Positions 11,703-63,403 are shown, counted from the first letter of the stretch. The stretch is 64,000 nucleotides of DNA from an uncultured delta proteobacterium (GCA_963825005.1 CAWGRP010000009.1:24719-88718); one strand, 5' to 3'. Program-made: numbers and translations. Notes: generated by a model from the letters alone, not told the origin.

Positions 11703-11730
11703 GTGATCGCTCATAAGCAATAGCAATAAA

Positions 11731-22554: not shown

Positions 22555-22743
22555 CCAGTTGCCAGTGGCCAGTAAGAAAATAAAACAGTGGCCAGTAAAT
22601 GCAAAAAAGAGTTACCAGTGGCCAGTGAGGGCGGAAGCTACTTCTACATACTGGCTACTGGGCACTGGCAACTGGCTACTGAGTTGTCCTGGCTACTGAC
22701 AACTGGCACTATACTGGCCACTTCTCTTTACTGGCTACTGGCC
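22555..22743. repeat. Heptamer-word dyad element C (CCAGTGG / CCACTGG, CTACTGG)
   Basis: Left arm CCAGTTGCCAGTGGCCAGTAAG...CAGTGGCCAGTAA...TTACCAGTGGCCAGTGA, a short spacer, then right arm ACTGGCTACTGGGCACTGGCAACTGGCTACTG...ACTGGCTACTGGCC. It overlaps the aor stop codon. Confidence 0.7.
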
Positions 22744-24471
22744 CAGTTCCCTGATAGCCTTTGCATACTCTTTCGTGAGAGCATTGAGGTAGTCGTGGTC
22801 CACGGTCCCCTTCGCGGTTGTTACCTCATAGAAACGTTTCGGGATCGTCACCTCTTCCGGTTTGTAACCGGTCGCAAGACGCATTTTCCACCGGAGCTGC
22901 TGAATGTTCCGACCGACAGGCCCGAGGTTATCCGCAATTGAGCCGTATCCGACGCTCTTGAGGCACGCTGTCAGCATTTCATCCGTATAGACTCCGCGCG
23001 CAAAGAGACAGGAGACCATGGAGGTGAGGAGCGCTCTTCCCTGCTCGTCCTTGACCAGAAAATCTACTGCCTTAGACACATCTTTGCCCTTCTCCTTCTG
23101 ATCAAAAGAGTAGCCGCCGCTGTCCAGATGCGAGTGGCGGAAGCCCAGCGCCTGGGAAGCAAAGTAGACCTCACCTGTCGCATAACCCGCCATCTCCTGG
23201 CCGAGAACGCAGGCGTACTCCTTTCCGCCGTAATGCTCCGCCGCCTTGAGCGTGCCCTGTGCGAGGAGAGTATAGAACTCGTTCGTGGACCTGCCCAGAT
23301 GCTCCATCGCCTGTTTATAGCCCTCGGTGTCGCCGAAGGAGAGGCGGACGATAGTCTCCTTTTCCGAAATGACCCCCTTCTCCGTGGCCTCAGTCGCCCA
23401 GGCCAGGGCAACGCCCGCTGACATCACGTCGAGCCCCACCTTTTCAGAGATGTCAATGATCGCGAGCACGTGAAAAGGGTCGGTAACCGAAAGCATCGCC
23501 CCCACGGCAAATATCGGCTCGTGATCATAGGAAACCTGCCGGTAGATGTAGCGGTGTTCCTTGGTGTACCGTTCACGCACGAACCCTATGTGGATGCAAC
23601 CCACCGGACAGCCTGCGCAGGCCGCATTTCGAAGCAGGACATCGTCCGCGAATTTTTCACCTGAGATGCTGCTCATAGCCGGGTCGGTCGTCCGCTGGAG
23701 GTTACGGATGGGCAGCATCTTCGTTTCGTTCAGCACGGCCATGTTGATCGGCGTGCCGATGTCGTGATACTTCATCATGTCCTTACCGGTAACCTTGGTA
23801 TAGGTCTCCTGAAAGACCTTCGGGTACTCTTTCGAATCCGGAAGCGAAAACGATGCGTCACCCTCGATTAAGATAGCCTTGAGATTCTTGCGTCCCATGA
23901 CCGCTCCTCCGCCAAGCCTTCCGAAATGGCGGTACGTGTCGGCGTTGATGGCTGCCATGGCAGAGCCGTTCTCGCCGGCCGGCCCGATGCGCATGATGGT
24001 CCGGTGACCTGAGCCACGCTTGACGAGGCCGCGGAGCATTCTTCCCGACTCAAAAACGTCCTTTCCCCAGACAAAGGGGAGTTCCTTTATCACCAGGTTT
24101 TGTGAGGCAACGCCGATACAGGAAGGGTTTGCAGCCTTGCCGACAATAACCAGCGCATCGAGATCGGCAAATCGAAGGGCCAGGGCCGATCGGCCGCCGG
24201 CGTGACTTTCAGCGTACTGGTCGTGATAGGGCGATTTGAAAGCACAGACGGTCTTGCTCATGAGCGGGAAATAGCCGGTGAGAGGACCGATAGCGAAGAT
24301 GAGCGGCTGATCGGGATCATCCCATGGTTTGTCCGGATGGCCGTATTTACTGAATAACAGGGCCGCGAGTCCGCTGCCACCGACAACCGTATCACGCCCA
24401 TCGAGTGTTACCACGTTGCCTCGACCGGTAGCGAGGTTAACGAGCAAAATTCTAAAGTTGTCTCTGATCAT
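22735..24471 (-). CDS. aor: Aldehyde:ferredoxin oxidoreductase family (tungstopterin) enzyme
   Basis: 578 aa with AOR N-terminal and catalytic domains colinear with the family, including the Cys-rich region NAACAGCPVGCIH. Confidence 0.8.
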   Translation of the reverse strand: MIRDNFRILLVNLATGRGNVVTLDGRDTVVGGSGLAALLFSKYGHPDKPWDDPDQPLIFAIGPLTGYFPLMSKTVCAFKSPYHDQYAESHAGGRSALALRFADLDALVIVGKAANPSCIGVASQNLVIKELPFVWGKDVFESGRMLRGLVKRGSGHRTIMRIGPAGENGSAMAAINADTYRHFGRLGGGAVMGRKNLKAILIEGDASFSLPDSKEYPKVFQETYTKVTGKDMMKYHDIGTPINMAVLNETKMLPIRNLQRTTDPAMSSISGEKFADDVLLRNAACAGCPVGCIHIGFVRERYTKEHRYIYRQVSYDHEPIFAVGAMLSVTDPFHVLAIIDISEKVGLDVMSAGVALAWATEATEKGVISEKETIVRLSFGDTEGYKQAMEHLGRSTNEFYTLLAQGTLKAAEHYGGKEYACVLGQEMAGYATGEVYFASQALGFRHSHLDSGGYSFDQKEKGKDVSKAVDFLVKDEQGRALLTSMVSCLFARGVYTDEMLTACLKSVGYGSIADNLGPVGRNIQQLRWKMRLATGYKPEEVTIPKRFYEVTTAKGTVDHDYLNALTKEYAKAIRELGQ

Positions 24472-24908
24472 GGATGCACCTCACTTTTCACGGATCTCCC
24501 CCTCGTGATCTCGCTCAACTCAAGGCACTCGTGAGGGCAAAAGGGGACGCACCGGCCACAGTGGATGCAGACAAACGGGTCTCCTGTTTGATCGAGGTAG
24601 ATGGCGTCCACGGGGCAGGCTTTGGCGCATTTGCCGCAACGAATGCAGAGATTCTTTTTCACTATTACGCCTCCGTCCTTGCGCTGGCTGTAGGCGCCTG
24701 TGGGGCAGGCTTCAGCGCAGGGAGCAGGGTCGCAAGCCACGCACGTCCTGGCCACAAAACCGGTGGAGAGCCCTCCTGATGAGCCTATGCGGATACCGGC
24801 GGTATCCCATGAGAGGTTCTTGTGTATAAGGCGGGCGCAGGCAAAAGAACAGGAGTGGCAGCCGATACAGCGCTCCATTCTCGGTGTTGTCAACATTTTC
24901 ATCTTCAA
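24468..24908 (-). CDS. 4Fe-4S multicluster ferredoxin (AOR partner)
   Basis: Several CxxCxxCxxxC(P) motifs (CIGCHSCSFAC, CIRCGKCAKACP, CIHCGRCVPFCP). There is a 4-nt overlap with the aor start. Confidence 0.75.
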   Translation of the reverse strand: MKMKMLTTPRMERCIGCHSCSFACARLIHKNLSWDTAGIRIGSSGGLSTGFVARTCVACDPAPCAEACPTGAYSQRKDGGVIVKKNLCIRCGKCAKACPVDAIYLDQTGDPFVCIHCGRCVPFCPHECLELSEITRGRSVKSEVHP

Positions 24909-24980
24909 TCTCCTTCTCTTTCCATTGCTACTGTCAATTCCAAGCCTTTCTATTCATCACCAACTTCAAAAGAAAACACC

Positions 24981-25214
24981 TTTTCGTCGCAGATAAGAGC
25001 GGATAAAAGCTGTGATGAACGCAGATAATTTATCTTTGACCGCCTGTGTGATAAAGCCGCACAGCCGGTCAACCCAGCACCTCCGGTGGGGTAAATTTCA
25101 CTCGCGGAGCGACGGAGTGTGGACAGCATTGACGTTGTATCACAATGCTGCACACGGTCAAACTCATCTGTGTACATCTCTCTTGGCTCTTATCTGCGTT
25201 AATCTGCGATAAAA
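24981..25214 (+). repeat. R240 structured inverted-repeat element, copy 1 (MITE-like)
   Basis: Terminal inverted repeat TTTTCGTCGCAGATAAGAGC / GCTCTTATCTGCGTTAATCTGCGATAAAA. Internal hairpins GACCGCCTGTG...CACAGCCGGTC and GTGGACAGCATTG...CAATGCTG. Confidence 0.8.
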
Positions 25215-25230
25215 TTCTTCATTAGCTAAT

Positions 25231-26864
<1,634 letters not shown>

Positions 26865-26889
26865 TTCTGACTCCTTTTATCTTCACACC

Positions 26890-27636
26890 CTAGGACTTCT
26901 TCAACTGGTCTGCTACCGCCTTTGCCGCTTTTTCAATCGCTTCCTGATCTCCCAGGTAATAGCTGCGGATTGCCTTAAGGTCATCTTCAAGTTCGTACAC
27001 CAGGGGTATTCCTGTAGGAATATTAAGACCGACAATGTCATCATCGGAGACGTTGTCGAGATATTTGACCAGGGCGCGAAGACTATTGCCATGCGCGGCA
27101 ATTACCACTCTCCTGCCTTCTCGCACTGCCGGAGCGATTGTGTCATGCCAGTACGGCAGGAACCGCGCAACCGTATCTTTGAGCGCCTCCGTCAGAGGGA
27201 CCTCTTCAGGCTTAAGGTGCGCATAACGCGGATCCTTACCCGGATAGCGCTCATCATCCTTTGTGAGTGCCGGAGGCTGGATGGCGTAACTTCTACGCCA
27301 GATTTTCACCTGATCCATCCCGTGCTTTTCAGCGGTTTCTGCCTTGTTCAAACCCTGCAAAGCGCCATAGTGGCGCTCGTTGAGCCTCCAGCTATTATGA
27401 ACCGGTATCCACATGAGGTCCATTTCCTCAAGCGCAAGCCAGAGTGTCTTGATGGCCCTTCTGAGCACAGAGGTGAACGCCACGTCAAAGACAAACTTTT
27501 CCCGTAAGAGGAGTTTGCCGGCCTCCACCGCTTCTTGCCTGCCTTTGTCGCTGAGATCCACGTCGGTCCATCCGGTAAAACGGTTTTCCTTGTTCCATGT
27601 GCTCTCGCCATGGCGAAGCAGTACCAACTTTTTCAT
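26890..27636 (-). CDS. gpmA: 2,3-bisphosphoglycerate-dependent phosphoglycerate mutase
   Basis: [25 protein letters not shown] catalytic His motif. 248 aa, intact. Confidence 0.9.
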
Positions 27637-27666
27637 CTCCTTGCCTCCTAATGATCGAACACAGCC

Positions 27667-27903
27667 TTTTTATCGCCGATAAAAGCGGATAAAAGCTATG
27701 ATGAACGCTGATAGTTTATCTTTGACCGCCTGTGCGATAAAGCGGCACAGCCGGTCAACCTGGCAGCACCTCCGGTGGGGTGAGACTTGCGCGGGAGCGC
27801 TGAAGGTGTGGACTGCATTGCCGTTGTATCACAATGCTGTCCACCGGTATACTCATCTGCGTACATCTCTCTTTGCCTTTATCTGCGTGCATCTGCGATA
27901 AAA
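27667..27903 (+). repeat. R240 element, copy 3
   Basis: Aligns end to end with copies 1, 2 and 6. Hairpin GTGGACTGCATTG-N11-CAATGCTGTCCAC. Confidence 0.8.
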
Positions 27904-27939
27904 TTCTGTCCTTTGTCTGATTTCACCATCAGCATCCTC

Positions 27940-29371
27940 TCACCGTGCCAGATCGATGATCTGCATGCTGTGATTGGCATCCGGATGCCGTGATGAAGGC
28001 CCCTCAATAACAACGGCTAAACTCCCATCCAGACCATGTTCATTCACCCACGCTCTCACATAGTCGTTCCAGTGGTCTGGTAATTGCGGCTCACAAACCG
28101 GATGAACACTTGACGAGAACTGGAGCTGCCGGCATGTCGCCTCATGCCTGCTCACCGCTACTACCCAGACGGGGAAACGAAACCTTGCGATGCTCCGTGC
28201 AGTGGCGCCACTCCGCGTCGGGACGAAGACTGCTGCGGGCGTTACCCATTGGAGGCCTGATTCCACCCCAATAGCTATGAGATGCTCCGGCCGAATTTTT
28301 CCCCTCAGGTCAATGCCCTCGTACAACGCTCTTACCGTGGTCATGGGCCGATGTTGCTCCACTGCGTGAGCGATCTTTGCGAGCATCGCAACAGCATCAA
28401 CAGGATACTTTCCCATAGCCGACTCGCCCGACAACATGACGCAATCCGTGCCGTCGAGGATTGCGTTCGCGACATCGGTTGCCTCAGCGCGGGTGGGACG
28501 GCGATTATCGGTCATCGATTCGAGCATCTGTGTTGCCGTAATCACCGGTTTTGCGTACATGTTCGCAAGACGCATCAGCCGCTTCTGGACCACCGCAATC
28601 TCCTCTATCGGAACTTCCACGCCCAGGTCTCCACGGGCAACCATGATACCATCGGCAGCCACGACAATCTCATCGATGTTATCGAGCGCGCCGGACCGTT
28701 CGATCTTGGCGATGATGAAGGGATGGTAGCCGAGGTCTGCCGCCGCCTTCCGCACCGTGTTTATATCTCCGGCGTTCTCAACGAAAGATTGGCTGACGGC
28801 GTCAACGCCGTTCTCAAGCGCGAATGCAAGGCATTCGCGGTCGCGCGGCGTGAAGGCGCTGATGCCGAGGTCAATGCCGGGAAGGTTGAGCCCCTTGCGG
28901 GAACGAAGCTCGCCGCCGACCCGCACGGTGCAGATCACGTCGTTACCGGTCACGCGGTTCACTTCGAGCTGGATGTAGCCGTCATTCAGGAAAAGCGTGT
29001 TCCCGGGTTTTACCGCCTTCGGAAGGCCGGCAAAGGAGACGGAGACGCGGCTCTGCATCACCGACGATATCGTCGGTGGTCAGCGTGAACGGATCGCCGG
29101 GGCTAAGGTTGATCGGCTCCGAGGCAAATTTTCCGATACGCATCTTCGGGCCCGAAAGATCGGCCATGATCGCAATGCGCCGACCAAGTGATGCTGACAC
29201 GGCCCGCAGGTTCTCGATTACCTTCTTATGAGCCGCGAAGTCTCCATGAGAAAAGTTGAGCCGGGCAACGTTCATGCCTGCTTCAATCATCTGCTTCATT
29301 ACGTCTGGAGATTCAGACGCAGGTCCTATGGTGCAGACGATCTTGGTCTTGGGTGCAGTGATCTTCATCAT
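27940..29371 (-). pseudogene. pyk: Pyruvate kinase, frame broken once
   Basis: ORFs 28982..29371 (TKIVCTIGPAS...NFSHG) and 27940..29061 (MVARGDLGVE...) join if one extra nucleotide near 29056 is removed (...DDIVGD-QSRVSVSF...). Confidence 0.9.
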
Positions 29372-29420
29372 TTCCTCCCTGCCAACAATGATTCATGCCG
29401 GCCACTTCGTTAGACAAGGC

Positions 29421-29695
29421 TTTTATCGCAGATCGCAGCATCCTGTAAGGATAAAAACGGATAAAAGCTATGATGAACGCTGATAGTTTATCTTTGACCG
29501 CCTGTGCGATAAAGCGGCACAGCCGGTCAACCCCAGCACCTCCGGTGGGGTGAGACTTGCGCGGGAGCGCTGGAGGTGTGGACTGCATTGCCGTTGTATC
29601 ACAATGCTGTCCACCGCCACACTCGCCCTTACAGGAGGCTTCGCACTCTGCGCATATCTCTCTTTGCTCTTATCGGCGTGCATCTGTGATAAAAA
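29421..29695 (+). repeat. R240 element, copy 4 (long variant)
   Basis: Same core plus an extra complementary pair, GCAGCATCCTGTAAGG (left) / CCTTACAGGAGGCTTCGCACTCTGCG (right). Confidence 0.8.
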
Positions 29696-29725
29696 TCCTT
29701 CCTTTGCTCATGAGCCTCGAAGTCC

Positions 29726-30268
29726 TTATGCGGTCAACTCCATCAACACATGCACTGACTCGCGCGACGGTGTCTTCTTAATCGCAAGACCGCTTCGCGT
29801 AAAAACCTTCAGCATCGCTTCGTTCGAGGGGAGGACCTCTGCCTCAAACTGTGTGATTCCCGAGTCGCGGGCGATCGCGAGCAGGTGCTTGAATATGAGC
29901 GATGCGATCCCGAGGCCCTGAAATCTGTCATCGACAAGGAATGCCACCTCTGCCTTTTGTCCTGCCCCCGATGTTCCGCTACGGATGTACCTGCCGCCTG
30001 CTACAAGCTGTTCTTTCCCATTTTTCTCCAGTGCAGCGACAAGCGCAACCGTATTTACGAAATCGACCTCGGTGACTTTTTTCAAGCCTTCATCGGAGAT
30101 ATCGTTCTTCATGGTGAAAAGTCGGCGGTAGATCGAATCGGCGCTCACTCCGGCCAGTGCTTCGACCACGAGGCCCTTATCATCAGGTCGCACAACCCGT
30201 ATAACCATCGACCGCTGATCTCTCAACCGCTCAGTAACGGAATAATTGACGATGTCATCTCTGTTCAT
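29726..30268 (-). CDS. Pat-type GNAT (protein lysine) acetyltransferase domain protein
   Basis: AEVAFLVDDRFQGLGIASLIFKHLLAIARDSGITQFEAEVLPSNEAMLKVF matches the acetyl-CoA-binding core of Pat/PatA-type GNAT domains. The start was moved to MNRDDIV because the upstream 25 codons are heptamer repeat D. Confidence 0.7.
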   Translation of the reverse strand: MNRDDIVNYSVTERLRDQRSMVIRVVRPDDKGLVVEALAGVSADSIYRRLFTMKNDISDEGLKKVTEVDFVNTVALVAALEKNGKEQLVAGGRYIRSGTSGAGQKAEVAFLVDDRFQGLGIASLIFKHLLAIARDSGITQFEAEVLPSNEAMLKVFTRSGLAIKKTPSRESVHVLMELTA

Positions 30269-30309
30269 TTCGACCGTCGATCCTCGCCGCCACACTTCTG
30301 TCTTCCACC

Positions 30310-30380
30310 GGTCACTGATAACTGATAACTGGTCACTGGTCACTGGTCACTGGTCACTGATAACTGGTCACTGATCACTC
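30310..30380. repeat. Heptamer-word array D (GGTCACT / GATAACT), single arm
   Basis: GGTCACTGATAACTGATAACTGGTCACTGGTCACTGGTCACTGGTCACTGATAACTGGTCACTGATCACTC. I saw no complementary arm. Confidence 0.7.
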
Positions 30381-30385
30381 TCATT

Positions 30386-31381
30386 CTATTGCGAGCCCCA
30401 GGAATTCAAGAGATGCATATAATGCAGCCTTGATAACGACTTAGGATCAGGGATATGTTCAATGTTCATAGTGCCCCGCATTTGTCGGACCGACTCATAC
30501 TCATGCTGCTCCAGCCATTCGGCCAGCCCCTCGCGCAAGGTCTTCACGTGTCCGATCCCGTTCTTCTGCAGAGTCGAGCAGAGTTGTACGCAGTCTGCTC
30601 CTGCCATCACGGACTTCACCACGTCCTTCATGACGTGGACACCTCCGCTGGCCGCAAGTGAGCAGCTTACATTGCCCGAAATGATGGCAAGCCATCGTAG
30701 CCTGAGCAACAGCTCACGGGAATCGGACTGTTGAAGTTTTGAGATAGGTTCGAGATTGTCAATATCAATGTCCGGCTCGTAAAGCCGGTGCAGGAGGACG
30801 AGGCCGTCGGCCCCTTCTCCCACAAGCTGTCGTGCGAAGTTCGCTAATGAAGTGTGAAAGCCCGTAAGCTTCACGCTGACCGGGATGCTTACGTTTCTCT
30901 TCACTCTCCTTAGCGCCAGCAAAAACCGTCGCTCAATCGTTCTTCCCGACTCAGAGGCATCAGTTGCTACATAGTAGAAGTCCAGTTCCAGTGCATCCGC
31001 GCCTGCCTGCTCCATGCCCACTGCATAATCCTTCCATCGGGCGGCTGTAACGGCATTAATTGATGCTATGATCGGGACTCTGATATGCTTCTTCACCTCG
31101 GCAATATGCGCCATGTAGCTTTCAGCCTCGACGATCGCACGCTCAGGCTCCGCAAAATAGGAAAGCGCCTCAGGGAAGGACTCGGCAGGCGTGTCGATCG
31201 AGTTGAAAAGCTCCATCTCATCGCTCATCAGTTGTTCCTCGAAGAGCGGCGGAAGCACCACAGCAGCAATGCCGGCATCCTCCAGACGTTTGATCGTGTC
31301 GAGACGCACCGTGAACGGGGAAGCACCCGCAACAAACGGATTGGCGAGCGGTAGCCCAAGAAATGTCGTTGTGAGATCCAT
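30386..31381 (-). CDS. Dihydroorotate dehydrogenase-like (class 1 DHOD/DPD-fold) flavoprotein
   Basis: 331 aa with a TIM-barrel DHOD-family pattern (FLGLPLANPFVAGASP...VSVKL...ASGGV). It lacks features that would let me assign it to PyrD proper. Confidence 0.65.
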   Translation of the reverse strand: MDLTTTFLGLPLANPFVAGASPFTVRLDTIKRLEDAGIAAVVLPPLFEEQLMSDEMELFNSIDTPAESFPEALSYFAEPERAIVEAESYMAHIAEVKKHIRVPIIASINAVTAARWKDYAVGMEQAGADALELDFYYVATDASESGRTIERRFLLALRRVKRNVSIPVSVKLTGFHTSLANFARQLVGEGADGLVLLHRLYEPDIDIDNLEPISKLQQSDSRELLLRLRWLAIISGNVSCSLAASGGVHVMKDVVKSVMAGADCVQLCSTLQKNGIGHVKTLREGLAEWLEQHEYESVRQMRGTMNIEHIPDPKSLSRLHYMHLLNSWGSQ

Positions 31382-31415
31382 GTATCAATCCTCCTTACCC
31401 GGCGCAGCGCCGGAA

Positions 31416-35284
<3,869 letters not shown>

Positions 35285-35309
<25 letters not shown>

Positions 35310-38661: not shown

Positions 38662-38694
38662 TGTCGACTCCCTACCTTCTAGTTAGCGCCCTTT

Positions 38695-39860: not shown

Positions 39861-40030
39861 CTCCTCAAGACGCGTGTGATAGAGAACGCGTTCATCATTA
39901 CCGAGTAAAGTGTACGCCCTTCATCGGGGAAGGGATCTTGCATTCGCCGATCCTGGCTATTGTAAAATCGAGCTCAGTGTTGCTCATTAGTCCTCCAATA
40001 CTCCATTCATCAACCGCTTACCAGAAACCG

Positions 40031-40268
40031 CTTCTTATCGCAGATAACAGCAGATAAGAGCTATGATAAGAGCGGATGATTCATTTCTTGACCGCCTGTG
40101 CGATACAGCGGCACAGCCGGTCAACCCCAGCACCTCCGGTGGGGTGAGACACCTGCGCGGAGCGCTGGAGGTGTGGACTGCATTGACGCTGTATCACAAT
40201 GCTGTCCACGGCCACACTCATCTGCGCACATCTCTCATTGCTCTCATCTGCGTGCATCTGCGATAAAA
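40031..40268 (+). repeat. R240 element, copy 6
   Basis: TTCTTATCGCAGATAACAGCAGATAAGAGC...GCTCTCATCTGCGTGCATCTGCGATAAAAA, with the same core hairpins. It ends 9 nt from the fba stop. Confidence 0.8.
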
Positions 40269-40276
40269 ATTCCGCC

Positions 40277-41300
40277 TCACTTCATCATCGTCGTGCCGAG
40301 ACCGCGTAGTTCGGTCACGGCCTGTTTTACACGTTCCGCCATAGACTTCTCAGCCGCGGTCAGGTACTCACGCGGGTCATACGTCTTCTTGTTGCCCACG
40401 TCACCGTCCACCTTGAGCACGCCGTTGTAGTTCTTGAACATATGGTCTGCAATGGCACGTGTAAATGCGTACTGCGTGTCGGTATCGATATTCATCTTCA
40501 CCACACCATAATCAACGGCCGCATGTATCTCGTCAATGGAAGAGCCCGAACCCCCGTGGAACACCAGGTAGAAACGGGCCTCCTCGCCGTACTGCTTGAC
40601 GACCGCATCCTGGCAATCTTTCAGGATGGAAGGTTTCAGCTTGACGTGGCCGGGCGCATAGACGCCGTGCACATTACCGAAAGTCGCGGCCAGCAGGTAG
40701 CGCGCCCCTGATCGGGTTAAGCCGGCGCGCAACTTCGAGGGTATCCTCGGGGGTAGTGTACAGCTTTGCTGAAGCGCTCGCCTTCACGCCGTCTTCTTCT
40801 CCTCCCACTACGCCCGCTTCGATTTCGAGGATCAGCTCGCTCTTCCGGAACCGTTCGAGCAGCTTCGCCGCAATGTCGAGATTTTCGTTCAGGGGAAGCG
40901 CGCTCCCGTCGAACATGTGGGCAGTGAAGAGGTTCGGCTTTCCTGCCGCGCGCCGCCTCTCCGTCTCTTCCACGAGCGGGATCACAAACTTCTCGAGGTT
41001 GCCTGCGGTGCAATGGTCTGTGTTGAGCGCCACGTAGATGGGATATCTGTCTGCGACGCGGTGGACGTGTTCGGCTATCGACATCGCGCCGAGAGCCATG
41101 TCCTTGATGGAAGAGCCTGAGGCAAAGGCGCCCCCGCCCGTAGAGATCTGGATGATCCCGTCGCTTTTGCTTTCGGCGAGCCCTTTCAGGACTGCATTCG
41201 CCGTGGTGAGCGATGTGACGTTGAAGGCAGGATAGGCAAAATGATTCTTCCGGGCTTTATCGAGCATTTCGCAAAATATCGCATAGTTCGCAAACGGCAT
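40277..41300 (-). pseudogene. fba: Class II fructose-1,6-bisphosphate aldolase, frame broken once
   Basis: MPFANYAIFCEML... preceded by RBS AAAGGAGGA. ALNTDHC, FGNVHGVY, VFHGGSG. An extra nucleotide in the 40700-40712 G/C run joins the two ORFs. Confidence 0.9.
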
Positions 41301-41319
41301 ATGATCCTCCTTTTGCTTG

Positions 41320-43470
41320 TTATCGTAGCCACACCTTGGCAAACGGCGCCAAGGAATGGCACCGCATTGTTACGCGCCTGGTCAGCAGGAGCACCACCGA
41401 GCGCGGCTGGACCAGGTACGTCGAACCATCGACGGTCGGTGCTTCAGGCCAGGGGTGTATATCGTCGGGTGAATCGAGAAACGTATCGATGCTTCTCCGC
41501 CAGGGCTCATACTCATGGCTGCCTGAGGGATCTCAAATGAGAGCGCTTCCCAGAAAGCATTGACCATGATGTGCAGGAGGAGTTGGTTTCCCGGGACGGC
41601 AACAGTGGCAGACACTACGTGAGACTGGTCGCCCCAGTCGGGAGCGTTAAGCTTGACCCCGTGCCATTGAACCGGTTGGTTGCGCAGCAGTTCGTTCAAG
41701 CTCATGTTCGCCCGCTCTATCGGCAGTTCGCGATTCCGGCGTACCGCGATGAGGTGCTTCGTAAAGCGAAGGATGTCTGCATGCTTCGCCACACGCGCCC
41801 AATCGAACCAGCTGATCTCGTTGTCCTGGCAGTATGCATTGTTGTTGCCGCCCTGGCTGTGTCTTATCTTCATCGCCCATGAGTAGCATGGGTGTACCTA
41901 TCGAAAGGAGCGTGAGGGTGAGGAAATTTTTCACCTGGCGATTACGTAGCCGCTCAACCTCCGGATCGTCGGTGGGCCCCTCGACGCCACAGTTCCAGCT
42001 CATGTTGTCATTCGATCCGTCGCGGTTCTCTTCGCGGTTCGCCTCGTTGTGCTTATAGTTGTAGGAGACAAGATCGTTAAGGGTGAAGCCGTCGTGACAG
42101 GTAACAAAATTGATAGACTGCTCCGGCTCACGCCCTTTGTGCCCGTATATATCAGGGCTCCCGAGTAGCCGTTGGGCTATGGATCCGGCCTTCCCATCAT
42201 CGCCTTTTACGAAGGCGCGGATGTCGTCACGAAAGCGGCCGTTCCATTCCTTCCACCCGTCGCCCACAAAACTGCCCACCTGGTAGAGACCCGCTGCATC
42301 CCATGCCTCAGCGATCAACTTCACGTTGGCAAGCACCGGATCAGACTCGATATCCCAGAGCACAGGGGGAGACGGCATGGGATGGCCGTTGCTGTCCCGC
42401 GAAAGTATCGACGCCAGGTCAAAACGGAAGCCGTCAACATGCATCTCGCTGACCCAGTAACGAAGACTGTCAATGATCATTCTCCTGCAGATGGGTTCAT
42501 TCGCATTTAAGGTGTTGCCGCACCCGGTGTAATTACCGTAAAGAGCCTTGTTCGATTCGAGAATGTAATAGGCTTCGTTGGAAAGACCGCGGAAACAGAA
42601 GGTCGGGCCATTCTCATTGCCCTCAGCGGTATGGTTGTAGACCACGTCCAGGATCACCTCGATATTGGCACGGTGGAGCGCCTTGACCATGTCCCGGAAC
42701 TCATCCAGCACGCCAAGCGGATCCTGGCGCTGAGCTGTAGCCGGCATGGGGTGCAAAAAAAGCGATGGGAGAATAACCCCAGTAATTGCAAAGGCCCGGA
42801 GGGCCGTCCTGTTCGTCGAATGCAAACACGGGCAGCAGTTCAACCGCGGTGATCCCGAGGTCCTGAAGATACGGGATTTTTTCTATCAGCCCTGCGTACG
42901 TGCCTCTTTTGTCAGGGGCAACACCTGAATTGGGATGTCTTCGTGAAGCCGCCGATATGCAATTCGTAAATGACCGATCTGACAAAAGGCATTCGTAGCA
43001 GCGTGTCATCTTCCCAGTCGTACGCGCTCGATGTCAGCGACCACGCTTTTCATGGCAGAGGCGGCATTATCTCCGGGCTTGGACGCGGCATCGCGGCTGT
43101 AGCCTGCCGGCCGGGCAATGCACCTTCCGTACGGATCGAGCAGCACCTTCTCCGAATCGAACCGGAGTCCTCGTTCCGGCTCAAAAGGGCCGCGCACCCG
43201 ATAGGCATAGAGTTGTCCCGCCGTAATAGCCGGCACGAATACGTGCCAGTAGTGGTACGTACGATTGGTATGCCGGTCCAGCTCCACCACGCGGGACGGC
43301 TTCGGATCGTCGACCCGATCGAAAAGAAGCAGCTGCACCCCTTCGCTCTGCTTCGAAAAAAGACTGAAGTTCACGCCTTCAGGGTAGATTGTGGCACCGA
43401 GCGGAAAACTCCTGCCGTAAGAAAGAGGGGTGGTTTCATGTGTGCGAATTGTGCTGCGTTCTCTATTCAT
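41320..43470 (-). pseudogene. glgX: Glycogen debranching enzyme (GlgX/isoamylase, GH13), frame broken about five times
   Basis: GH13 regions VILDVVYNHT, GFRFDLAS, LIAEAWD, FVTCHDGFTLND. Breaks lie near 43024, 42940, 42734, 41868 and 41515. The start ATG overlaps the glk stop (ATGA at 43467-43470). The reconstructed stop is at 41320-41322. Confidence 0.85.
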
Positions 43471-44144
43471 CGCGCGCCTCTCTGTTTGCGAATGCCCGCT
43501 TTGTCCCACATGAGAAATCCTCCGCGGAAGGCATTGTCATTGTGACCCTTACGGCAACCCGGAGGCAACTCCTTCAGCTTATGAACATTGCCGCCGCCTA
43601 TGACCACTTCGTCAATCAGCAGCGCACTTGTCATCCGGGTTACACAGGCAAAAACGTGCTGCTGCCATTTCTTGAATCCGAGGCGCTCCAAACCTCTGTG
43701 TCCCAGGTACCCTTCATAGGTGCCTCTCTTGTAGGGCAGGTGACCGAGTTCCATGGGCTGCAGCTGACCGCTCACGATTAAGGCGCTGCCGAGGCCGGTT
43801 CCGAGGCCCAGGAAGAACATCCTTCCGCCTTTGTAACTGCCAAGCGCCTGCATAGCCGCGTCATTTAAGATTTTCACAGGACACCCGAAGGCAGCCTCAT
43901 AGTCAAACCCAACCCAGCCGCGTCCCAGGTTGCGCGGTTCCGCCATCGGATGGCCGTCGAGGACCGGGCCAGGGTAACCGATCGATACCACATCATACTT
44001 CCACCCGTTGGCAACCTGCCTCACTCTTGATACCATCTGCTCGGCCGTGAAGGTAGGACCTGAGTGAAAGGCCCGGGGCGTTTCCTGCCCCGTCGCCAAT
44101 ATCTTGATGCTGGTCCCGCCCACATCGACGACGAGAACTCTCAT
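43467..44144 (-). CDS. ROK-family sugar kinase (glucokinase / polyphosphate-glucokinase-like)
   Basis: MRVLVVDVGGTSIK phosphate-1 motif, ILNDAAMQALG, GLGTGLGSA. 225 aa. Confidence 0.7.
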   Translation of the reverse strand: MRVLVVDVGGTSIKILATGQETPRAFHSGPTFTAEQMVSRVRQVANGWKYDVVSIGYPGPVLDGHPMAEPRNLGRGWVGFDYEAAFGCPVKILNDAAMQALGSYKGGRMFFLGLGTGLGSALIVSGQLQPMELGHLPYKRGTYEGYLGHRGLERLGFKKWQQHVFACVTRMTSALLIDEVVIGGGNVHKLKELPPGCRKGHNDNAFRGGFLMWDKAGIRKQRGAR

Positions 44145-44164
44145 GAAAAAACTCCAAGTACCTT

Positions 44165-44272
44165 AGTAATCAGTCATCAGTAATCAGTTAACAGTTGCCA
44201 GTGATCAGTAAGAGCAATCGACACCGATTACCGATTACTGATAACTGATCACTCTCTTTGTTCACTGATCAC
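44165..44272. repeat. Heptamer-word dyad element E (CAGTRAT / ATYACTG)
   Basis: AGTAATCAGTCATCAGTAATCAGTTAACAGTTGCCAGTGATCAGTAAGAG, a spacer, then GATTACCGATTACTGATAACTGATCACTC...CACTGATCAC. Confidence 0.7.
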
Positions 44273-45929
44273 TTTTTTTCGTCGCCAGATCCTGGCTCAA
44301 TATTTTTTTGGCCTCGTCTACAATCGTCTGCAGGTGCGCTTCATCCTTGAAGCTCTCTGCGTAGAGCTTGTATATGTTCTCTGTTCCGGACGGCCTGGCT
44401 GCAAACCAGCCGCTGTCTGTCACGACTTTCAAACCACCAATAGGCGCTCCATTGCCTGGAGCAGATGAGAGTTTCGCCAGGATCGGCTCGCCCGCTAATT
44501 GCTTCGCCGTTACGTCCTCTGGAGAGAGGTTTGCCAATCGCGCCTTCTGCTCGGGTGTTGCCGGTGTATCAATCCTTGTGTAATACGGCGTTCCCAGCCG
44601 AGCCGTAATCTCCTTATAGAGCTCACCAGGGTCACGACCGGTCCTGGCCGTGATCTCGGCTGCCAGCAGATTCATGATGAGGCCGTCCTTGTCAGTCGCC
44701 CAGACGCTGCCGTCTTTTCTCAGGAAACTTGCTCCTGCACTTTCTTCGCCTCCGAAACAGTACGATCCGTCAAACAACCCGTCCACAAACCACTTGAAAC
44801 CAACAGGCACTTCTGACAAGGTCCGCCCGAGGCTCTTCACAACACGGTCGATAAGGCTACTGCTCACCAGCGTCTTGCCGATAGCCGCTTTCACGGGCCA
44901 TTCGGGACGGTGAGCGAGCAGGTAATTTATTGCTACGGCAAGATAATGGTTGGGATTCAGAAGGCCCATTGAACGGGTGACGATGCCGTGCCGGTCTGCG
45001 TCGGTGTCGTTTGCGAAAGCGATCTGAAACTGATCTTTTAGCCCCACCAGCCGGGCCATGGCATATGGGCTCGAGCAATCCATCCTGATCTTGCCGTCGT
45101 GATCGACGGTCATAAAGGCGAACTGCGGATCCACCTTGGAATTGACAACCGTGATGTCGAGACCATAGATGGCCCTGATCGGCTCCCAGTAGTGGACCGA
45201 GGCCCCGCCGAGCGGATCGCAGCCGATTTTGATGGCTGCAGATCGTATGGCATCGATATCGATGACATTGGACAGGTCCTTTACGTAAGGCATCATAAAA
45301 TCTTGCTGGTGTGTCGTCTTGCCCTTCAAAGCAGAGTCGTAAGGGATGCGCTTGACCTCGCGGTTGCCGGAGCGCAACAGATCATTGGCGCGGTCCTGGA
45401 TCCATCGCGTCACGTGGGTATCGGCAGGCCCGCCGTTGGGCGGATTGTATTTGAAACCGCCGTCCTCGGGCGGGTTGTGCGACGGCGTTACCACGATACC
45501 GTCGGCCAGGCCGTTTTTCCGGCCGCGGTTATACGTGAGGATGGCGTGAGAGACGACCGGCGTGGGGGTGAAGCCATCGTCCTTCTGGATCATCGTTTCG
45601 ACGCCATTCGCTGCAAGCACTTCGAGCGCCGTACGCTGGGCAGGCCCGGACAATCCATGCGTGTCCTTGCCCAAGAAAAGCGGTCCATCGGTCTTCTGGG
45701 CGAGCCGGTAGTCGCAAATCGCCTGCGTGGTGGCGAGAATGTGCGCTTCGTTAAAAGTGCCGCGTAATGACGAGCCGCGGTGTCCGCTGGTACCGAAGCT
45801 CACCAGTTGCAGAGGATCGCCTGTATCGGGCTGACGCTCATAATATTCCCGTTCGAGCCGGGCGAGGTCAACGAGCAGTTCCTTTGGCGCCGGCTTACCG
45901 GCAAGAGGGGATAGTGCCATATCAGTCAC
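44262..45929 (-). CDS. pgm: Phosphoglucomutase (alpha-D-glucose-phosphate specific)
   Basis: Active-site loop [15 protein letters not shown]. 555 aa, colinear with Pgm. Confidence 0.9.
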
Positions 45930-45939
45930 TCCTTAAATT

Positions 45940-46125
45940 CAGTGTCGAGTGTCAGGTGTCGGGTGAAGATTCAGAAAGAACAACCGCTCGGTATTTCCAG
46001 AAGCCAGACGGTCTATTTACCCAATACACTTTACGTTCCTCCTTCATCATCTCACTCTCGTTATTTCTTATTTTTTCCCTCGACACTCGACCCTCGACAC
46101 TTTCTCACTTGTCACTCGTCACTCC
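45940..46125. repeat. Heptamer-word dyad element F (GTGTCGA / TCGACAC)
   Basis: CAGTGTCGAGTGTCAGGTGTCGGGTG, a ~110-nt spacer, then CCCTCGACACTCGACCCTCGACACTTTCTCACTTGTCACTCGTCACTCC. The glgP stop lies inside the right arm. Confidence 0.7.
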
Positions 46126-48620
46126 ACCGGGCATGGCTTTACATTCCAGATTTCCTTGGCGTATTCCGCGATAGTTCGATCACTTGAGAATTTACCTGAG
46201 CCGGCCACGTTCAGGATCGCTTTTTGCGCCCATGCTTGCGGATCTTTATATAGCTCGCAGAGGCGCTGGTCTGCTTCGAGATAGGATTTAAGGTCTGCCA
46301 GGTGCATGTAGTGGTCCCCGTGTGTCAGGAGCGTATCGCGCACAGGAGCGAAGATGCCTGGTTCATAACGGCTGAAGTAATCCGAGAAGATAAGATCCAG
46401 TGCTGCACGGGTCTCCGGCTCGTTCTCGTAGTGCCATTGCGGGCTGTACCATCCGCTACTACTGACAACCTGGTCCGCAGTCAGACCGAACAGGAAGAAG
46501 TTCTCTTCACCTGCTTCTTCAGCCATCTCAATGGTCGCGCCGTCGCGCGTGCCGATCGTCAATGCGCCGTTCATCATGAATTTCATATTGCTCGTGCCGC
46601 TGGCCTCGTACCCCGCGGTCGATATCTGGTTGGATACATCACTGGCGGGAATCAGCCGCTCCGCGACCGACACGCAGTAGTCGGGAATGAAGACTACCTT
46701 GAGTTTGTCGCGCACAGCCGGGTCGCCATCGATGGTACCCGCAAGGTTGTTGATGAACTTGATGATGAGCTTGGCCAGATGGTAGGCAGGCGCTGCCTTG
46801 CCGGCGAAGAAGAACGTGCGCCGCGGCAGGTCGAGCCCGGGGTTTTCCCGTAGTCTATTGTACAGTACGACAATGCGTAAAGCATTGAGCAGTTGCCGCT
46901 TATACTCATGGATGCGCTTCACCTGGCAGTCAAAAATGGTGTCAGGGTCCACGATCTGGCCGCTGGTTAATTTGAGCCAGTCCGCTAACCGCACTTTAGC
47001 ATCACGGTTCGCTTTGAGAAAGGTGTCGCCGAATGTTTTGTCATTCGCAAAGGGTTTGAGTTTCTTCAGCTGATCGAGGTCCGTGATCCACCCGTCGCCG
47101 ATGGCATCGGTGATGGTGCGGGAAAGGGCCGGGTTACATAAGAGCAGCCAGCGCCGGGGAGTGACTCCATTCGTTTTATTGTTGAAGCGCTCGGGGTACA
47201 TCTCGGCAAGGTCCTTGACCGTGATCGTACGCAAAAGGCCCGAATGAATTGCAGCCACGCCGTTAGTGCTGTGAGAACCCACAATCGCCAGGTTTGCCAT
47301 CCTGACTTTGCGGCCGGCGCCCTCTTCTATGAGGCTCACGTTAGCGACCCGTTGATTGTCGCCGGGGAAGCGGGTCTCGACCGAAATGAGAAGACGGCGG
47401 TTGATCTCATAGATGATTTCCATTAGACGGGGCTGTATTAATTCAAACCAGGCGACAGGCCATTTCTCCAGTGCTTCGGGCAGAAGCGTGTGGTTCGTGT
47501 ACGCGAGCGTTCGCTGAGTGATGTCCCAGGCCTCGTCCCACCCCAGTTTCGCTTCATCAAGCAGAATGCGCATCAACTCAGGGACCGCCATGGAAGGGTG
47601 CGTATCGTTGAGCTGAATCGCAACCTTCTCCGGTAGCTTGCTCCAGTCGGCGTTGCTCCGGCGGAAGCGTCGCACAAGATCGGCCAGAGAACAGGCAACC
47701 AGAAAATACTCCTGGATGAAGCGCAGTCCCTGCCCTATGCTTGTCGAGTCGTCCGGATAGAGTACCCGCGTGAGCGACTCGCTGGCCAGTGTCCCGGCAA
47801 GCGCGGCCACGAAGTCGCCGCTACTGAATTTCTGAAAGTCGAAATAATCGGGTGCTGCTGCGGCCCAGAGCCGAAGCGCGTTGATGGTCTTCCCATCGTA
47901 GCCGACGACGGGACGGTCGAACGGGATGCCGAGGACGCTGCTCGGTTGGCCGGGGATCGCGCGCAAGCTTCCGCCGCTCAATTCGAACGAGCAGTTGAGC
48001 TTCACTTCGACCGCGTCCTGCAGGCGTTCCACCTCCCACGGGTCCGGGCGACGGAGCCAGTTGTCCGGCTGTTCTTGCTGCCAGCCATCCTTGATGGTCT
48101 GTTTGAAGATGCCGTACTCGTAACGCAGACCGTAACCCATGGCCGGGAGTTGCATGGTGGCCATGGAGTCAAGGAAGCACGCAGCAAGGCGGCCGAGGCC
48201 GCCATTGCCGAGGCCGGCGTCAGGTTCCTGTTCGAGTACGTCGATCCAGTCGACGTGCTTTCGCTCGGCAACCTGCATTGCAAAAGGACCGAGCAGTAAA
48301 TTCGTAAGATTGTTTGCCAGGGAGCGGCCGATGAGGAACTCCATCGACAGATAGTAGATGCGTTTCGGGTTCTTGCGCTCGTACGTATCTCCCGTAGCCA
48401 CCCATCGTTGCGAGAGGGCATCCCTCGCAGAACGGGCAGCGGCCTCAAAATGCTCGCGCGGGCTTGTCTTGTTCGAGTCAATAATATTGTCGAACATGAG
48501 GTGCCGCTCATAGAGCCCGTCTTCCCCGGTGAACTGGATCGGGCCGCACCCGTATCGTTTGAAAAGCTCAGATAAATTATTGGACAGATCAGGTGGATCG
48601 CTTATTTTCTTTGCGCTCAT
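46119..48620 (-). CDS. glgP: Glycogen phosphorylase
   Basis: 833 aa with the PLP-lysine motif EASGTSNMKFMMNGALTIGTRDGATIE. Intact. Confidence 0.95.
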   Translation of the reverse strand: MSAKKISDPPDLSNNLSELFKRYGCGPIQFTGEDGLYERHLMFDNIIDSNKTSPREHFEAAARSARDALSQRWVATGDTYERKNPKRIYYLSMEFLIGRSLANNLTNLLLGPFAMQVAERKHVDWIDVLEQEPDAGLGNGGLGRLAACFLDSMATMQLPAMGYGLRYEYGIFKQTIKDGWQQEQPDNWLRRPDPWEVERLQDAVEVKLNCSFELSGGSLRAIPGQPSSVLGIPFDRPVVGYDGKTINALRLWAAAAPDYFDFQKFSSGDFVAALAGTLASESLTRVLYPDDSTSIGQGLRFIQEYFLVACSLADLVRRFRRSNADWSKLPEKVAIQLNDTHPSMAVPELMRILLDEAKLGWDEAWDITQRTLAYTNHTLLPEALEKWPVAWFELIQPRLMEIIYEINRRLLISVETRFPGDNQRVANVSLIEEGAGRKVRMANLAIVGSHSTNGVAAIHSGLLRTITVKDLAEMYPERFNNKTNGVTPRRWLLLCNPALSRTITDAIGDGWITDLDQLKKLKPFANDKTFGDTFLKANRDAKVRLADWLKLTSGQIVDPDTIFDCQVKRIHEYKRQLLNALRIVVLYNRLRENPGLDLPRRTFFFAGKAAPAYHLAKLIIKFINNLAGTIDGDPAVRDKLKVVFIPDYCVSVAERLIPASDVSNQISTAGYEASGTSNMKFMMNGALTIGTRDGATIEMAEEAGEENFFLFGLTADQVVSSSGWYSPQWHYENEPETRAALDLIFSDYFSRYEPGIFAPVRDTLLTHGDHYMHLADLKSYLEADQRLCELYKDPQAWAQKAILNVAGSGKFSSDRTIAEYAKEIWNVKPCPVE

Positions 48621-48694: not shown

Positions 48695-48742
48695 ATTTTG
48701 CGCAAAAACGCTATGAACTGTCTATAGGACCTTGGTCGTACC
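48695..48742 (-). promoter_or_regulatory. Palindrome-fused promoter of glgP
   Basis: Palindrome TATAGGACCTTGGTCGTACC (48723-48742). On the minus strand: -35 TAGACA (48719-48724), 18-nt spacer, -10 CAAAAT (48695-48700). Confidence 0.45.
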
Positions 48743-49910: not shown

Positions 49911-49936
49911 TTCAAATCTCCTCCTCCATAGAACCA

Positions 49937-50362: not shown

Positions 50363-50374
50363 CTGCTTACTCCA

Positions 50375-51454: not shown

Positions 51455-51465
51455 GGAAAATACCT

Positions 51466-52417: not shown

Positions 52418-52432
52418 GTTTTCTCTCCACTC

Positions 52433-55476: not shown

Positions 55477-55486
55477 TAATTGCCTA

Positions 55487-55891: not shown

Positions 55892-55906
55892 CTACCCTTT
55901 TCAGAT

Positions 55907-56410: not shown

Positions 56411-56419
56411 CTACCTTAT

Positions 56420-60038: not shown

Positions 60039-60048
60039 CGGTTCCTCC

Positions 60049-60704: not shown

Positions 60705-63403
<2,699 letters not shown>

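Follow-up and report, generated by a model that had tools for sequence, protein, structure and literature searches.

In the modified Embden-Meyerhof pathway of Pyrococcus furiosus, glyceraldehyde-3-phosphate (GAP) and pyruvate are both oxidised in a ferredoxin-dependent manner (by GAPOR and POR), all reducing equivalents leave as H2 through the energy-converting group 4 [NiFe] hydrogenase MBH, and acetate is the end product (PMC13328260, PMC12525153). In Caldicellulosiruptor bescii, a tungsten enzyme composed of the subunits WorL and WorS, the GOR, acts in glycolysis (PMC13328260). Only 5 of 92 tungsten oxidoreductase clades have a known physiological role (PMC13328260). All the catalytic second-shell residues are kept in the bacterial GOR clade but not in archaeal GAPOR (PMC12096430). 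Here, I analysed a 64-kb stretch of DNA from an uncultured delta proteobacterium (GCA_963825005.1 CAWGRP010000009.1:24719-88718; hereafter the window, whose coordinates count from its first letter). Sixteen consecutive minus-strand genes of the window form one block in the order glgP, pgm, ROK kinase, glgX, fba, pfk, pta, ackA, por, a dihydroorotate-dehydrogenase-like (DHOD-like) gene, GNAT, pyk, gpmA, eno, worS, and worL. It is rather likely that this locus is a conserved catabolic island of an uncultured strict anaerobe, which would turn stored glycogen into acetate, CO2, and H2, with the worS-worL product (WorSL) serving as a GOR, with the genes arranged in several sub-operons, and with the frameshifts in this copy being errors.

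The predicted logic is that of P. furiosus, namely conversion of GAP to 3-phosphoglycerate with ferredoxin. However, the host here is a bacterium from mesophilic wetland- or soil-type metagenomes, the Pfk is ATP-dependent while that of P. furiosus is ADP-dependent, and acetate would be formed via Pta and AckA instead of an ADP-forming acetyl-CoA synthetase. In contrast to archaeal GAPOR, the enzyme here has two subunits and keeps the Tyr and His second-shell residues which GAPOR lacks (PMC12096430). It resembles the C. bescii GOR in being heteromeric, with a WorL and a four-cluster WorS, in the conservation of all four second-shell residues, and in its predicted cytoplasmic location, link to ferredoxin, and participation in glycolysis next to GAPDH or in its place (PMC13328260, PMC12096430). 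C. bescii, however, is a thermophilic Firmicute, and the WorSL genes here have gpmA, eno, and pyk around them.

The central glycolytic operon (cggR-gapA-pgk-tpiA-pgm-eno) and the pfkA-pyk operon of Firmicutes are likewise co-directional clusters of lower-glycolysis genes. In classical bacterial glycolytic operons, gap, pgk, and tpi are the genes linked to pgm and eno. Here, gap, pgk, and tpiA are exactly the missing ones, and worS-worL lies in their neighbourhood instead; moreover, the cluster also takes in glycogen breakdown on its upstream side and acetate formation on its downstream side. The glgX-glgP and pta-ackA linkages are shared with the small Escherichia coli operons glgBXCAP and pta-ackA (in the order ackA-pta), and Desulfovibrio vulgaris has a por-pta-ackA cluster. 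Those are, however, separate units of two to seven genes including biosynthetic glg genes, while degradative genes only are fused with glycolysis here in a 26-kb block (32 kb with the Ech hydrogenase genes). The pathway genes of Pyrococcus are dispersed, whereas those of the window are clustered.

To identify the genes, the open reading frames (ORFs) of the 20-52 kb region were listed, translated, and scanned with Pfam and NCBIfam; the NCBIfam score of a broken gene was taken from an intact orthologue. All sixteen genes were assigned, most of them above curated cut-offs; within the set for glycogen degradation, glycolysis, and acetate formation, pgm, eno, and ackA were assigned by Pfam only (Table 1). 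The gene content and order given in a preliminary description of this DNA were thus confirmed, and its proposal of a coherent glycogen-to-acetate catabolic module is supported by the family assignments. That description had also emphasised that the genes are co-directional. This is true of the block, but not of the block alone: between 830 and 63995, all ORFs with a family match are minus-strand ORFs. The GC skew is negative over most of the window (cumulative value from -0.08 to -0.73), and the strand pattern and the skew fit genes on the leading strand. Since the whole window is co-directional, this argument adds little; it is the functional coherence of the genes that is the real signal. 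The direction of the block is catabolic, because only degradative and irreversible catabolic enzymes (glgP, glgX, pfk, and pyk) are present in it, with no glgA, glgC, fbp, or pps.

According to the preliminary description, only pgi, tpiA, gap, and pgk are missing from the route. No homologue of pgi, pgk, or gap was found anywhere in the window, and no triose-phosphate isomerase was matched by Pfam among the scanned window ORFs, tpiA itself not having been probed for lack of a reference sequence. The count of four changes if WorSL replaces gap and pgk; in that case, probably only pgi and tpiA are missing. Neither Rfam at gathering thresholds nor ARAGORN gave a match in the window.

The enzymes of the proposed pathway are established by family assignment, whereas the roles of WorSL and Ech in it are deduced from conserved gene neighbourhood. 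GlgP and GlgX would mobilise glycogen, releasing glucose-1-phosphate and debranching the polymer. Pgm would produce glucose-6-phosphate, and the short ROK kinase could capture free glucose. This kinase has a weak similarity, below the NCBIfam cut-off, to polyphosphate-glucose phosphotransferase. Together with a pgi encoded elsewhere in the genome, Pgm would feed Pfk and Fba for the production of triose phosphates. WorSL would then oxidise GAP directly to 3-phosphoglycerate and reduce ferredoxin, which would explain the absence of gap and pgk from the block. GpmA, Eno, and Pyk would yield pyruvate and ATP, the pyruvate:ferredoxin oxidoreductase (PFOR) encoded by por would yield acetyl-CoA and reduced ferredoxin, and Pta and AckA would yield acetate and ATP. 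All eight electrons per glucose would pass through ferredoxin, leaving no NADH to dispose of. The Ech hydrogenase would re-oxidise the ferredoxin, releasing H2 and pumping ions. Substrate-level phosphorylation would provide 3 ATP per glucosyl unit, and the ion gradient would come on top of this.

The ech genes lie just outside the coordinates of the block as first delimited, directly upstream of it in conserved synteny. EchE carries the nickel-binding motifs RICGLC and DPCISC. With six subunits (two membrane and four soluble) and the CxxC nickel ligands of EchE, Ech is a genuine [NiFe] hydrogenase. In some relatives, a small ferredoxin gene (Fer4_15/Fer4_13) is located next to the Ech or AOR gene, and its product is a candidate electron carrier, but the window yielded no homologue.

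The last two genes of the block had been described as a ferredoxin gene overlapping an aor gene. The Fe-S and AOR families and the ATGA overlap are correct, while the first product is not a free ferredoxin: the two genes encode the small and large subunits of a WorS/WorL tungsten oxidoreductase. WorS (146 amino acids) has four [4Fe-4S] cysteine motifs of the CxxCxxCxxxC type and matches two Fe-S subunits from end to end, that of WOR5 (6x6u_B) and that of the 9mqx AOR complex (9mqx_E); it has no Tat signal (no twin-arginine N-terminus). WorL (578 amino acids) has both AFOR domains. In its alignment with 1aor, the equivalents of the cluster cysteines C288, C291, C295, and C494 and of the second-shell residues Thr243, Glu313, Tyr427, and His448 are conserved. 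Neither a GAPOR nor a GOR structure is among the PDB matches to WorL. The pair is a predicted class II tungsten oxidoreductase (WorL plus WorS) in the sense of PMC13328260, the metal tungsten being itself a prediction. Neither tupABC nor cofactor genes were found in the window. The only named close homologues of WorL (77-81%) belong to Syntrophorhabdus sp. PtaB.Bin006, Syntrophorhabdus sp. PtaU1.Bin153, one Syntrophorhabdaceae metagenome-assembled genome (MAG), and one Syntrophales MAG. As judged from these homologues, the host most likely belongs to the class Syntrophorhabdia (Thermodesulfobacteriota). Three other taxa were dropped as candidates: Nitrospirota, because the AOR of a MAG from this phylum shares only 25% identity with WorL and has no such cluster around it; MBNT15, for which a paper offered nothing that matched; and Acidobacteriota, to which only a PFOR similarity of 67% or less pointed.

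What is the substrate of this enzyme? I scanned the gene neighbourhoods of WorL orthologues (66-95% identity) at 80 loci in JGI metagenomes. WorS is encoded directly upstream of WorL in 76 loci. The neighbours include gpmA (21 loci, with iPGM in two more), pyk (21), eno (16), pgm (14), the DHOD-like gene (10), pta, fba, and glgX (9 each), pgi (7), and pfk (5). Triose-phosphate isomerase was not recognised in these loci, there being no tpiA reference and only some recurrent unassigned ORF families having been scanned with Pfam. The gene immediately upstream of worS is a gene of the cluster in 48 of the 65 loci that could be assessed, most commonly gpmA. In Syntrophorhabdus sp. PtaB.Bin006 (L173; L numbers denote the loci from relatives and other organisms used for comparison), GAP to 3-phosphoglycerate is the only step between fba and gpmA without an enzyme, and WorSL is the sole unassigned oxidoreductase. 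Because of this conserved glycolytic neighbourhood, in which WorSL stands where gap, pgk, and tpi are expected, I consider the chances somewhat better than even that WorSL is a GAP:ferredoxin oxidoreductase like the C. bescii GOR and has displaced gap and pgk non-orthologously. An enzyme of the archaeal GAPOR type was rejected, because WorS is present in 76 of the 80 loci and the Tyr and His are conserved, while GAPOR is monomeric and lacks the Tyr/His region (PMC12096430).

Several observations weigh against this assignment. It rests on gene context. Among solved structures, WorL comes closest to the AOR of P. furiosus, an enzyme of broad spectrum, although the score is only 190 bits. Gap is a neighbour in four of the 80 WorL loci and pgk in two; gap even adjoins worS in L163, L167, L148, and L152. 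The counts are not independent, since the 80 loci were chosen through WorL, many are short, and some are perhaps close kin. Also, the island is not self-sufficient, as tpiA and pgi are still missing from the window.

WorS/WorL might instead be an ordinary aldehyde:ferredoxin oxidoreductase (AOR), used for aldehyde detoxification or for the reduction of acetate to acetaldehyde as an electron sink, in which case GAPDH and PGK would be encoded elsewhere and the island would lack four enzymes. Besides the best PDB match and the gap genes in four loci, this agrees with the JGI annotation of the orthologues as aldehyde:ferredoxin oxidoreductase and with the presence of worS-worL in one block with the acetate-making pta-ackA. 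AOR-type enzymes are also numerous in syntrophic Thermodesulfobacteriota. However, a match of only 190 bits argues that WorL is outside the AOR clade sensu stricto, and by far the most frequent genes directly beside it are gpmA, eno, pgm, and pyk, not pta/ackA or alcohol dehydrogenase genes. L173 and L089 embed the pair between gpmA/eno and pfk/pyk/malQ, and no alcohol dehydrogenase gene was seen in any variant of the cluster. An ordinary AOR is therefore a serious but unlikely alternative to the GOR assignment.

Is the arrangement a peculiarity of this contig? Relatives were collected through homologue searches with PGM and the DHOD-like protein and subsequent contig look-ups. The 16-gene order recurs in L081 (without the ROK kinase), L082/L085 (one contig of 120,929 bp), L083, L084, L086, and L087, on at least five independent contigs. 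These relatives share the flanks as well: the upstream side carries the genes for Ech and a solute-binding protein, and the downstream side those for RND efflux. More distant relatives have different orders. L089, from a circular contig of 5.6 Mb, has ackA-Ech-por-DHOD-gpmA-eno-worS-worL-pfk-pyk, and L172 has worL-ferredoxin-Ech-por-DHOD. The cluster of L173 reads pgi-fba-pfk-pta-ackA-GNAT-pyk-gpmA-worS-worL-malQ-GH63, with gaps mostly of -4 to 66 nucleotides (nt). L088 (1-21008) has an Entner-Doudoroff version of the island, glgP-glgX-[NiFe] hydrogenase-gap-por-DHOD-pgl-zwf-edd-eda-pyk-pta-ackA-GNAT, in which gap is present and no worSL is in view. Reshuffled clusters were also found in L100, L149, L159, and L093.

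As an out-group, 80 PFOR neighbourhoods from other phyla (PFOR identity of 67% or less) were inspected. Only por with the DHOD-like gene (67 loci) and occasionally pta/ackA (beside por in four loci) recur there, and the full set is never found, which bears out the earlier remark that the arrangement is unusual. Within the clade, on the other hand, the order is common, which is one half of what the preliminary description had named as refuting its hypothesis; as to the other half, no published description of the island was found in the searchable literature, in which the main Syntrophorhabdus genome paper did not surface. The clustering is therefore a clade feature that has been kept through rearrangement and is rare elsewhere. 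Across many phyla, cyanobacteria included, the gene directly after por encodes the DHOD-like protein (NF005741), a very widely conserved PFOR partner without a close solved structure.

It could be argued that the co-linearity is an inherited gene order without functional meaning, a by-product of leading-strand bias and low rearrangement. The whole 64-kb window is co-directional, an identical order at 80-90% identity is expected from shared ancestry alone, and unrelated genes (for the solute-binding protein, the DHOD-like protein, and GNAT) are interspersed. However, sixteen consecutive genes of one pathway are far beyond chance, and several junctions are translationally coupled. Furthermore, the distant relatives (L088, L089, L100, L149, L159, and L173) differ in gene order and gene sets and yet keep the functional classes together, which is a signature of selection for clustering. 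A merely inherited order is thus improbable. The GNAT and DHOD-like genes are conserved passengers of the module. For the GNAT gene, the longer ORF starts inside a heptamer array (30306-30379), and ATG 30268 is the probable start. The nearest solved structures are Pat-family GNAT domains: nine PDB entries, all of them acetyltransferases of this kind, match at E values of 0.01 or less, among them mycobacterial Pat, 9it0/9isq and 3f8k (both named as protein acetyltransferase), and 4nxy/4u5y (1.5e-22), which were deposited as acyl-CoA synthetase and represent a Pat GNAT domain. The protein (about 180 amino acids) lacks the full-length Pat architecture, as NF058543 matches its GNAT part only, at 89 bits against a cut-off of 460.

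Regarding transcription, the preliminary description left open very long transcripts starting at glgP. Its claim of coupled or overlapping junctions holds, with ATGA in each case, for glk/glgX (43467-43470) and for worS/worL. The third one, pta/ackA (36579-36582), is also present as ATGA, but ackA more plausibly starts at a second ATG (36563), which has GGAG 5 nt before it; with this start, pta and ackA would be tightly linked and not overlapping. In total, four junctions overlap or are separated by 3 nt or less, two more are separated by 29-33 nt, five gaps are 73-198 nt long, and six are 289-354 nt long. Tight coupling is limited to glk-glgX, pfk-pta-ackA, por-DHOD, and worS-worL. The promoter motif reported upstream of glgP does exist and is partly conserved in L081 (TGGACA...GAGAAT; blastn alignment), but it matches the consensus at only 9 of 12 positions, and shuffled sequence yields matches of this quality at least as often. 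Several sub-operons appear more likely than one 26-kb transcript. They would be glgP; pgm; glk-glgX; fba; pfk-pta-ackA; por-DHOD; GNAT; pyk; gpmA; eno; and worS-worL, separated by palindromic repeats or short heptamer arrays. Against this proposal, it must be said that co-regulation and the sub-operon boundaries are inferred from spacing only, and that promoter and terminator scans of the window gave nothing above chance. The sole sigma-54-type match in the window (TGGCACGCAATTCGCT) lies outside the cluster, just downstream of an NtrC-type response regulator gene and upstream of a 132-amino-acid ORF; a single match is the chance expectation.

The palindromic repeat, designated R240, is an intergenic element of about 240 nt with a terminal inverted pairing of about 30 bp and two internal hairpins. 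One copy fills each of the six large gaps, beginning 4-31 nt past the stop codon and ending 31-73 nt before the next start codon. A profile search of 2.3 Mb of loci found six copies in the window, one in L081, two in L092, and none elsewhere; all nine lie inside this cluster and in gene orientation. R240 is absent from the corresponding gaps in L085 and from L173. Since it is missing from the same gaps in close relatives, R240 is, as judged from its sequence and distribution, a lineage-specific insertion of the ERIC or MITE kind and not built-in punctuation. It resembles ERIC/IRU, REP/BIME, and MITE elements in being multi-copy and intergenic, with long terminal inverted repeats and a presence that varies between relatives, and it differs from them in that all nine copies are gene-oriented and confined to one cluster.

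The shorter gaps hold tandem arrays of heptamers (CAGTGAC, CTCGACA, and similar), at the same positions in L081 and L085. Tandem arrays with units of 7-8 nt (CAGTGAC, CTCGACA/AGTGTCG, CCGCGTCT) fill many intergenic spacers and are reminiscent of the cyanobacterial STRR heptamers.

A single giant operon read from the glgP promoter, with R240 acting only as RNA punctuation, would be in accordance with the co-direction of all the genes, the lack of predicted intrinsic terminators in the intergenic gaps, the gene orientation of all six R240 copies, and the largest gap (468 nt) being upstream of glgP. However, the genes lie apart by eleven gaps of 73-354 nt, the promoter motif matches no better than chance, and close relatives lack R240 at these sites (in L085, the fba-pfk gap is 22 nt long and the ackA-por gap 21 nt). 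In addition, relatives split the gene set into different neighbourhoods. One long transcript is very improbable on these grounds. The preliminary description was largely right on function and wrong or unsupported on transcription.

The preliminary description had overlooked the frameshifts of the block. Half of its sixteen genes, namely glgX, fba, pfk, pta, ackA, por, pyk, and eno, are not intact in this sequence but split into two to four ORFs by about 19 frameshifts, whose sites were placed by nucleotide alignment to the orthologues of relatives. Eighteen of the 19 are insertions, which add one base at 17 sites and two bases at another, and the remaining one is a deletion. Homopolymer-type sequencing error was rejected as the cause, because no site lies within a run of more than three bases. 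When the indels were removed in silico, the broken genes showed 84-96% amino acid identity to their orthologues, with 62-79% of the changed codons synonymous, as in the intact genes. After correction, seven of the eight have no internal stop codon, and pyk has one, in a divergent stretch with compensating indels. Every gene is intact in the relatives from short-read assemblies (k141_ contigs and JGI contigs). L086, another assembly with contig_ names, has similar isolated insertions, mainly in fba-pfk-pta-ackA-por, at positions that differ from those of the window; at one fba site, the window (40710) has +1 and L086 has +3. Unrelated genes of the window are frameshifted too, namely AcrB at 20450 and the GH63-like gene near 62815. 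Given the intact orthologues of the short-read assemblies and the lack of relaxed selection in the broken genes, the frameshifts are probably consensus errors of a long-read metagenome assembly and not gene decay. Their distribution speaks against this explanation: 18 are clustered in 17.8 kb (25.3-43.1 kb), compared with two in the roughly 32 kb of coding sequence that was checked elsewhere.

The rival view, that half of the genes are recent pseudogenes of a lineage losing glycogen fermentation, draws on these eight interrupted genes (with five or more sites in ackA), on their concentration beside intact ech, glgP, pgm, and aor, and on the interruption of pfk, pta, ackA, and por in L086 as well, but it is hardly credible given 18 insertions against one deletion without nonsense substitutions or larger deletions (a pattern unlike natural gene decay), equal codon-level conservation in broken and intact genes, the differing positions in L086, the hits in unrelated genes, and the intact short-read relatives. 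Before any metabolism is reconstructed from this assembly, the frameshifts in its gene calls must be corrected; with the present calls, pfk, fba, pta, ackA, por, pyk, and glgX would seem to be missing from the genome.

Upstream of Ech, further glucan-related genes are present (a GH13-family protein of 433 amino acids, an arylformamidase-like cyclase, and a GH63/MGH1-like glucosidase). The last of these is the orthologue, matched in two frames, of the 914-amino-acid gene that ends the L173 cluster, and it is an outlying member of the glucan module. The malQ gene (GH77) of L173 is absent from the window. Between an MscS channel gene and echA, there is a tandem duplication (519-nt register, 84-85% identity) with two paralogous ORFs of 134 amino acids without a Pfam match.

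Table 1. Positions of the features in the window and in the comparison loci (the latter marked by their L number); the gap is the distance to the next gene of the block.
Feature	Position	Strand	Gap (nt)	Evidence and remarks
Sigma-70-like motif TAGACA-18-CAAAAT	48695-48724	minus		in the 468-nt gap upstream of glgP; 9/12 consensus match
glgP, glycogen/alpha-glucan phosphorylase	46119-48620	minus	198	intact; PF00343 1007 bits; TIGR02093 1061 bits (cut-off 553)
pgm, phosphoglucomutase	44262-45929	minus	117	intact; four PGM_PMM Pfam domains; 91% identity to homologue P0001
ROK-family sugar kinase, short (glk-like)	43467-44144	minus	-4	intact; PF00480; stop overlaps glgX start (ATGA)
glgX, glycogen debranching enzyme	41374-43470	minus	73	broken into 4 ORFs; CBM_48 and Alpha-amylase; orthologue TIGR02100 719 bits (cut-off 641)
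fba, class II fructose-bisphosphate aldolase	40277-41300	minus	289	broken; PF01116 in two fragments; orthologue NF006628 444 bits (cut-off 297)
pfk, ATP-dependent 6-phosphofructokinase	38695-39987	minus	33	broken; PF00365 in two fragments; orthologue NF005301 642 bits (cut-off 400)
pta, long-form phosphate acetyltransferase	36579-38661	minus	29, 15, or -4	broken; AAA_26, DRTGG, and PTA_PTB; orthologue NF004167 902 bits (cut-off 418); gap to residue 9 of the ackA orthologue alignment, to ATG 36563, or from ATGA 36582, respectively
ackA, acetate kinase	~35333-36582	minus	318	broken; PF00871 in two fragments
por, nifJ-type PFOR	~31385-35014	minus	~3	broken; POR_N, PFOR_II, POR, EKR, TPP_enzyme_C; orthologue TIGR02176 1760 bits (cut-off 911)
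DHOD-like protein	30386-31381	minus	~117	intact; NF005741 388 bits (cut-off 303)
GNAT acetyltransferase, stand-alone, Pat-like domain	29726-30268	minus	354	intact; PF00583
pyk, pyruvate kinase	27940-29371	minus	303	broken; PK and PK_C in two fragments; orthologue TIGR01064 506 bits (cut-off 306)
gpmA, 2,3-bisphosphoglycerate-dependent phosphoglycerate mutase	26890-27636	minus	311	intact; NF010713 433 bits (cut-off 305)
eno, enolase	~25231-26578	minus	322	C-terminus lost to frameshift; Enolase_N and Enolase_C
worS, predicted 4x[4Fe-4S] small subunit of class II tungsten oxidoreductase	24468-24908	minus	-4	Fer4 families; ATGA overlap with worL
worL, predicted AOR-family tungstopterin catalytic subunit	22735-24471	minus		intact; AFOR_N and AFOR_C
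Frameshift, eno	25375			+1 insertion
Frameshift, pyk	29053			+1 insertion
Frameshift, por	31448			1-nt insertion
Frameshift, por	34260			2-nt insertion
Frameshifts, ackA	35394, 35493, 35529, 36230, 36258			at least 5 insertions
Frameshift, pta	37354			+1 insertion
Frameshifts, pfk	39590, 39628, 39904			+1 insertions
Frameshift, fba	40710			+1 insertion
Indels, glgX	41524, 41867, 42730, 42939, 43028
R240, fba-pfk gap	40032-40273	minus
R240, ackA-por gap	35074-35315	minus
R240, GNAT-pyk gap	29443-29700	minus		same position occupied in L092
R240, pyk-gpmA gap	27667-27909	minus		same position occupied in L092
R240, gpmA-eno gap	26624-26870	minus
R240, eno-worS gap	24981-25219	minus
R240, L081	14974-15213
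R240, L092	3212-3455, 4947-5188
Tandem arrays, window	11730-11936, 16195-16500, 22649-22681, 30306-30379, 44165-44242, 46079-46124, 55337-55466, 55908-55924, 56420-56553
Tandem array, L085	11009-11026
Tandem arrays, L081	9958-9981, 11682-11778
Ech-type group 4 [NiFe] hydrogenase, six genes	49937-55206	minus		Pfam; 74-93% amino acid identity to six L081 genes
echA	53311-55206	minus
echB	52433-53314	minus
echC	51965-52417	minus
echD	51466-51972	minus
echE	50375-51454	minus
echF	49937-50362	minus
Periplasmic solute-binding protein SBP_bac_3	49086-49937	minus		Pfam; between ech and glgP; same position in L081
GH63/MGH1-like glucosidase gene	60705-63403	minus		Pfam MGH1-like_GH and Glyco_hydro_63; frameshift near 62815
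Glucan-related genes upstream of Ech	58737-63403
Tandem duplication	55475-56415
Small Fer4_15/Fer4_13 ferredoxin, L081	414-653
Small Fer4_15/Fer4_13 ferredoxin, L172	767-1060
Small Fer4_15/Fer4_13 ferredoxin, L170	698-940
Sigma-54-type match	9557-9572	minus
NtrC-type response regulator gene	9702-11801

Syntrophorhabdia are known for syntrophic degradation of aromatics. I tentatively suggest that they and their wetland relatives may run a Pyrococcus-like, all-ferredoxin glycolysis from glycogen, encoded by a mobile-looking, reshuffled island in which the R240 copies may serve as shared regulatory or RNA-processing cassettes. If this is true, ferredoxin-only glycolysis with a tungsten enzyme would no longer be confined to hyperthermophilic archaea and one thermophilic Firmicute but would also occur in mesophilic anaerobes that are abundant in peat, wetlands, and digesters. 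Syntrophs living near the thermodynamic limit would then gain a self-contained reserve metabolism from glycogen to H2 and acetate, and WorSL offers a testable candidate for an uncharacterised clade of tungsten oxidoreductases.

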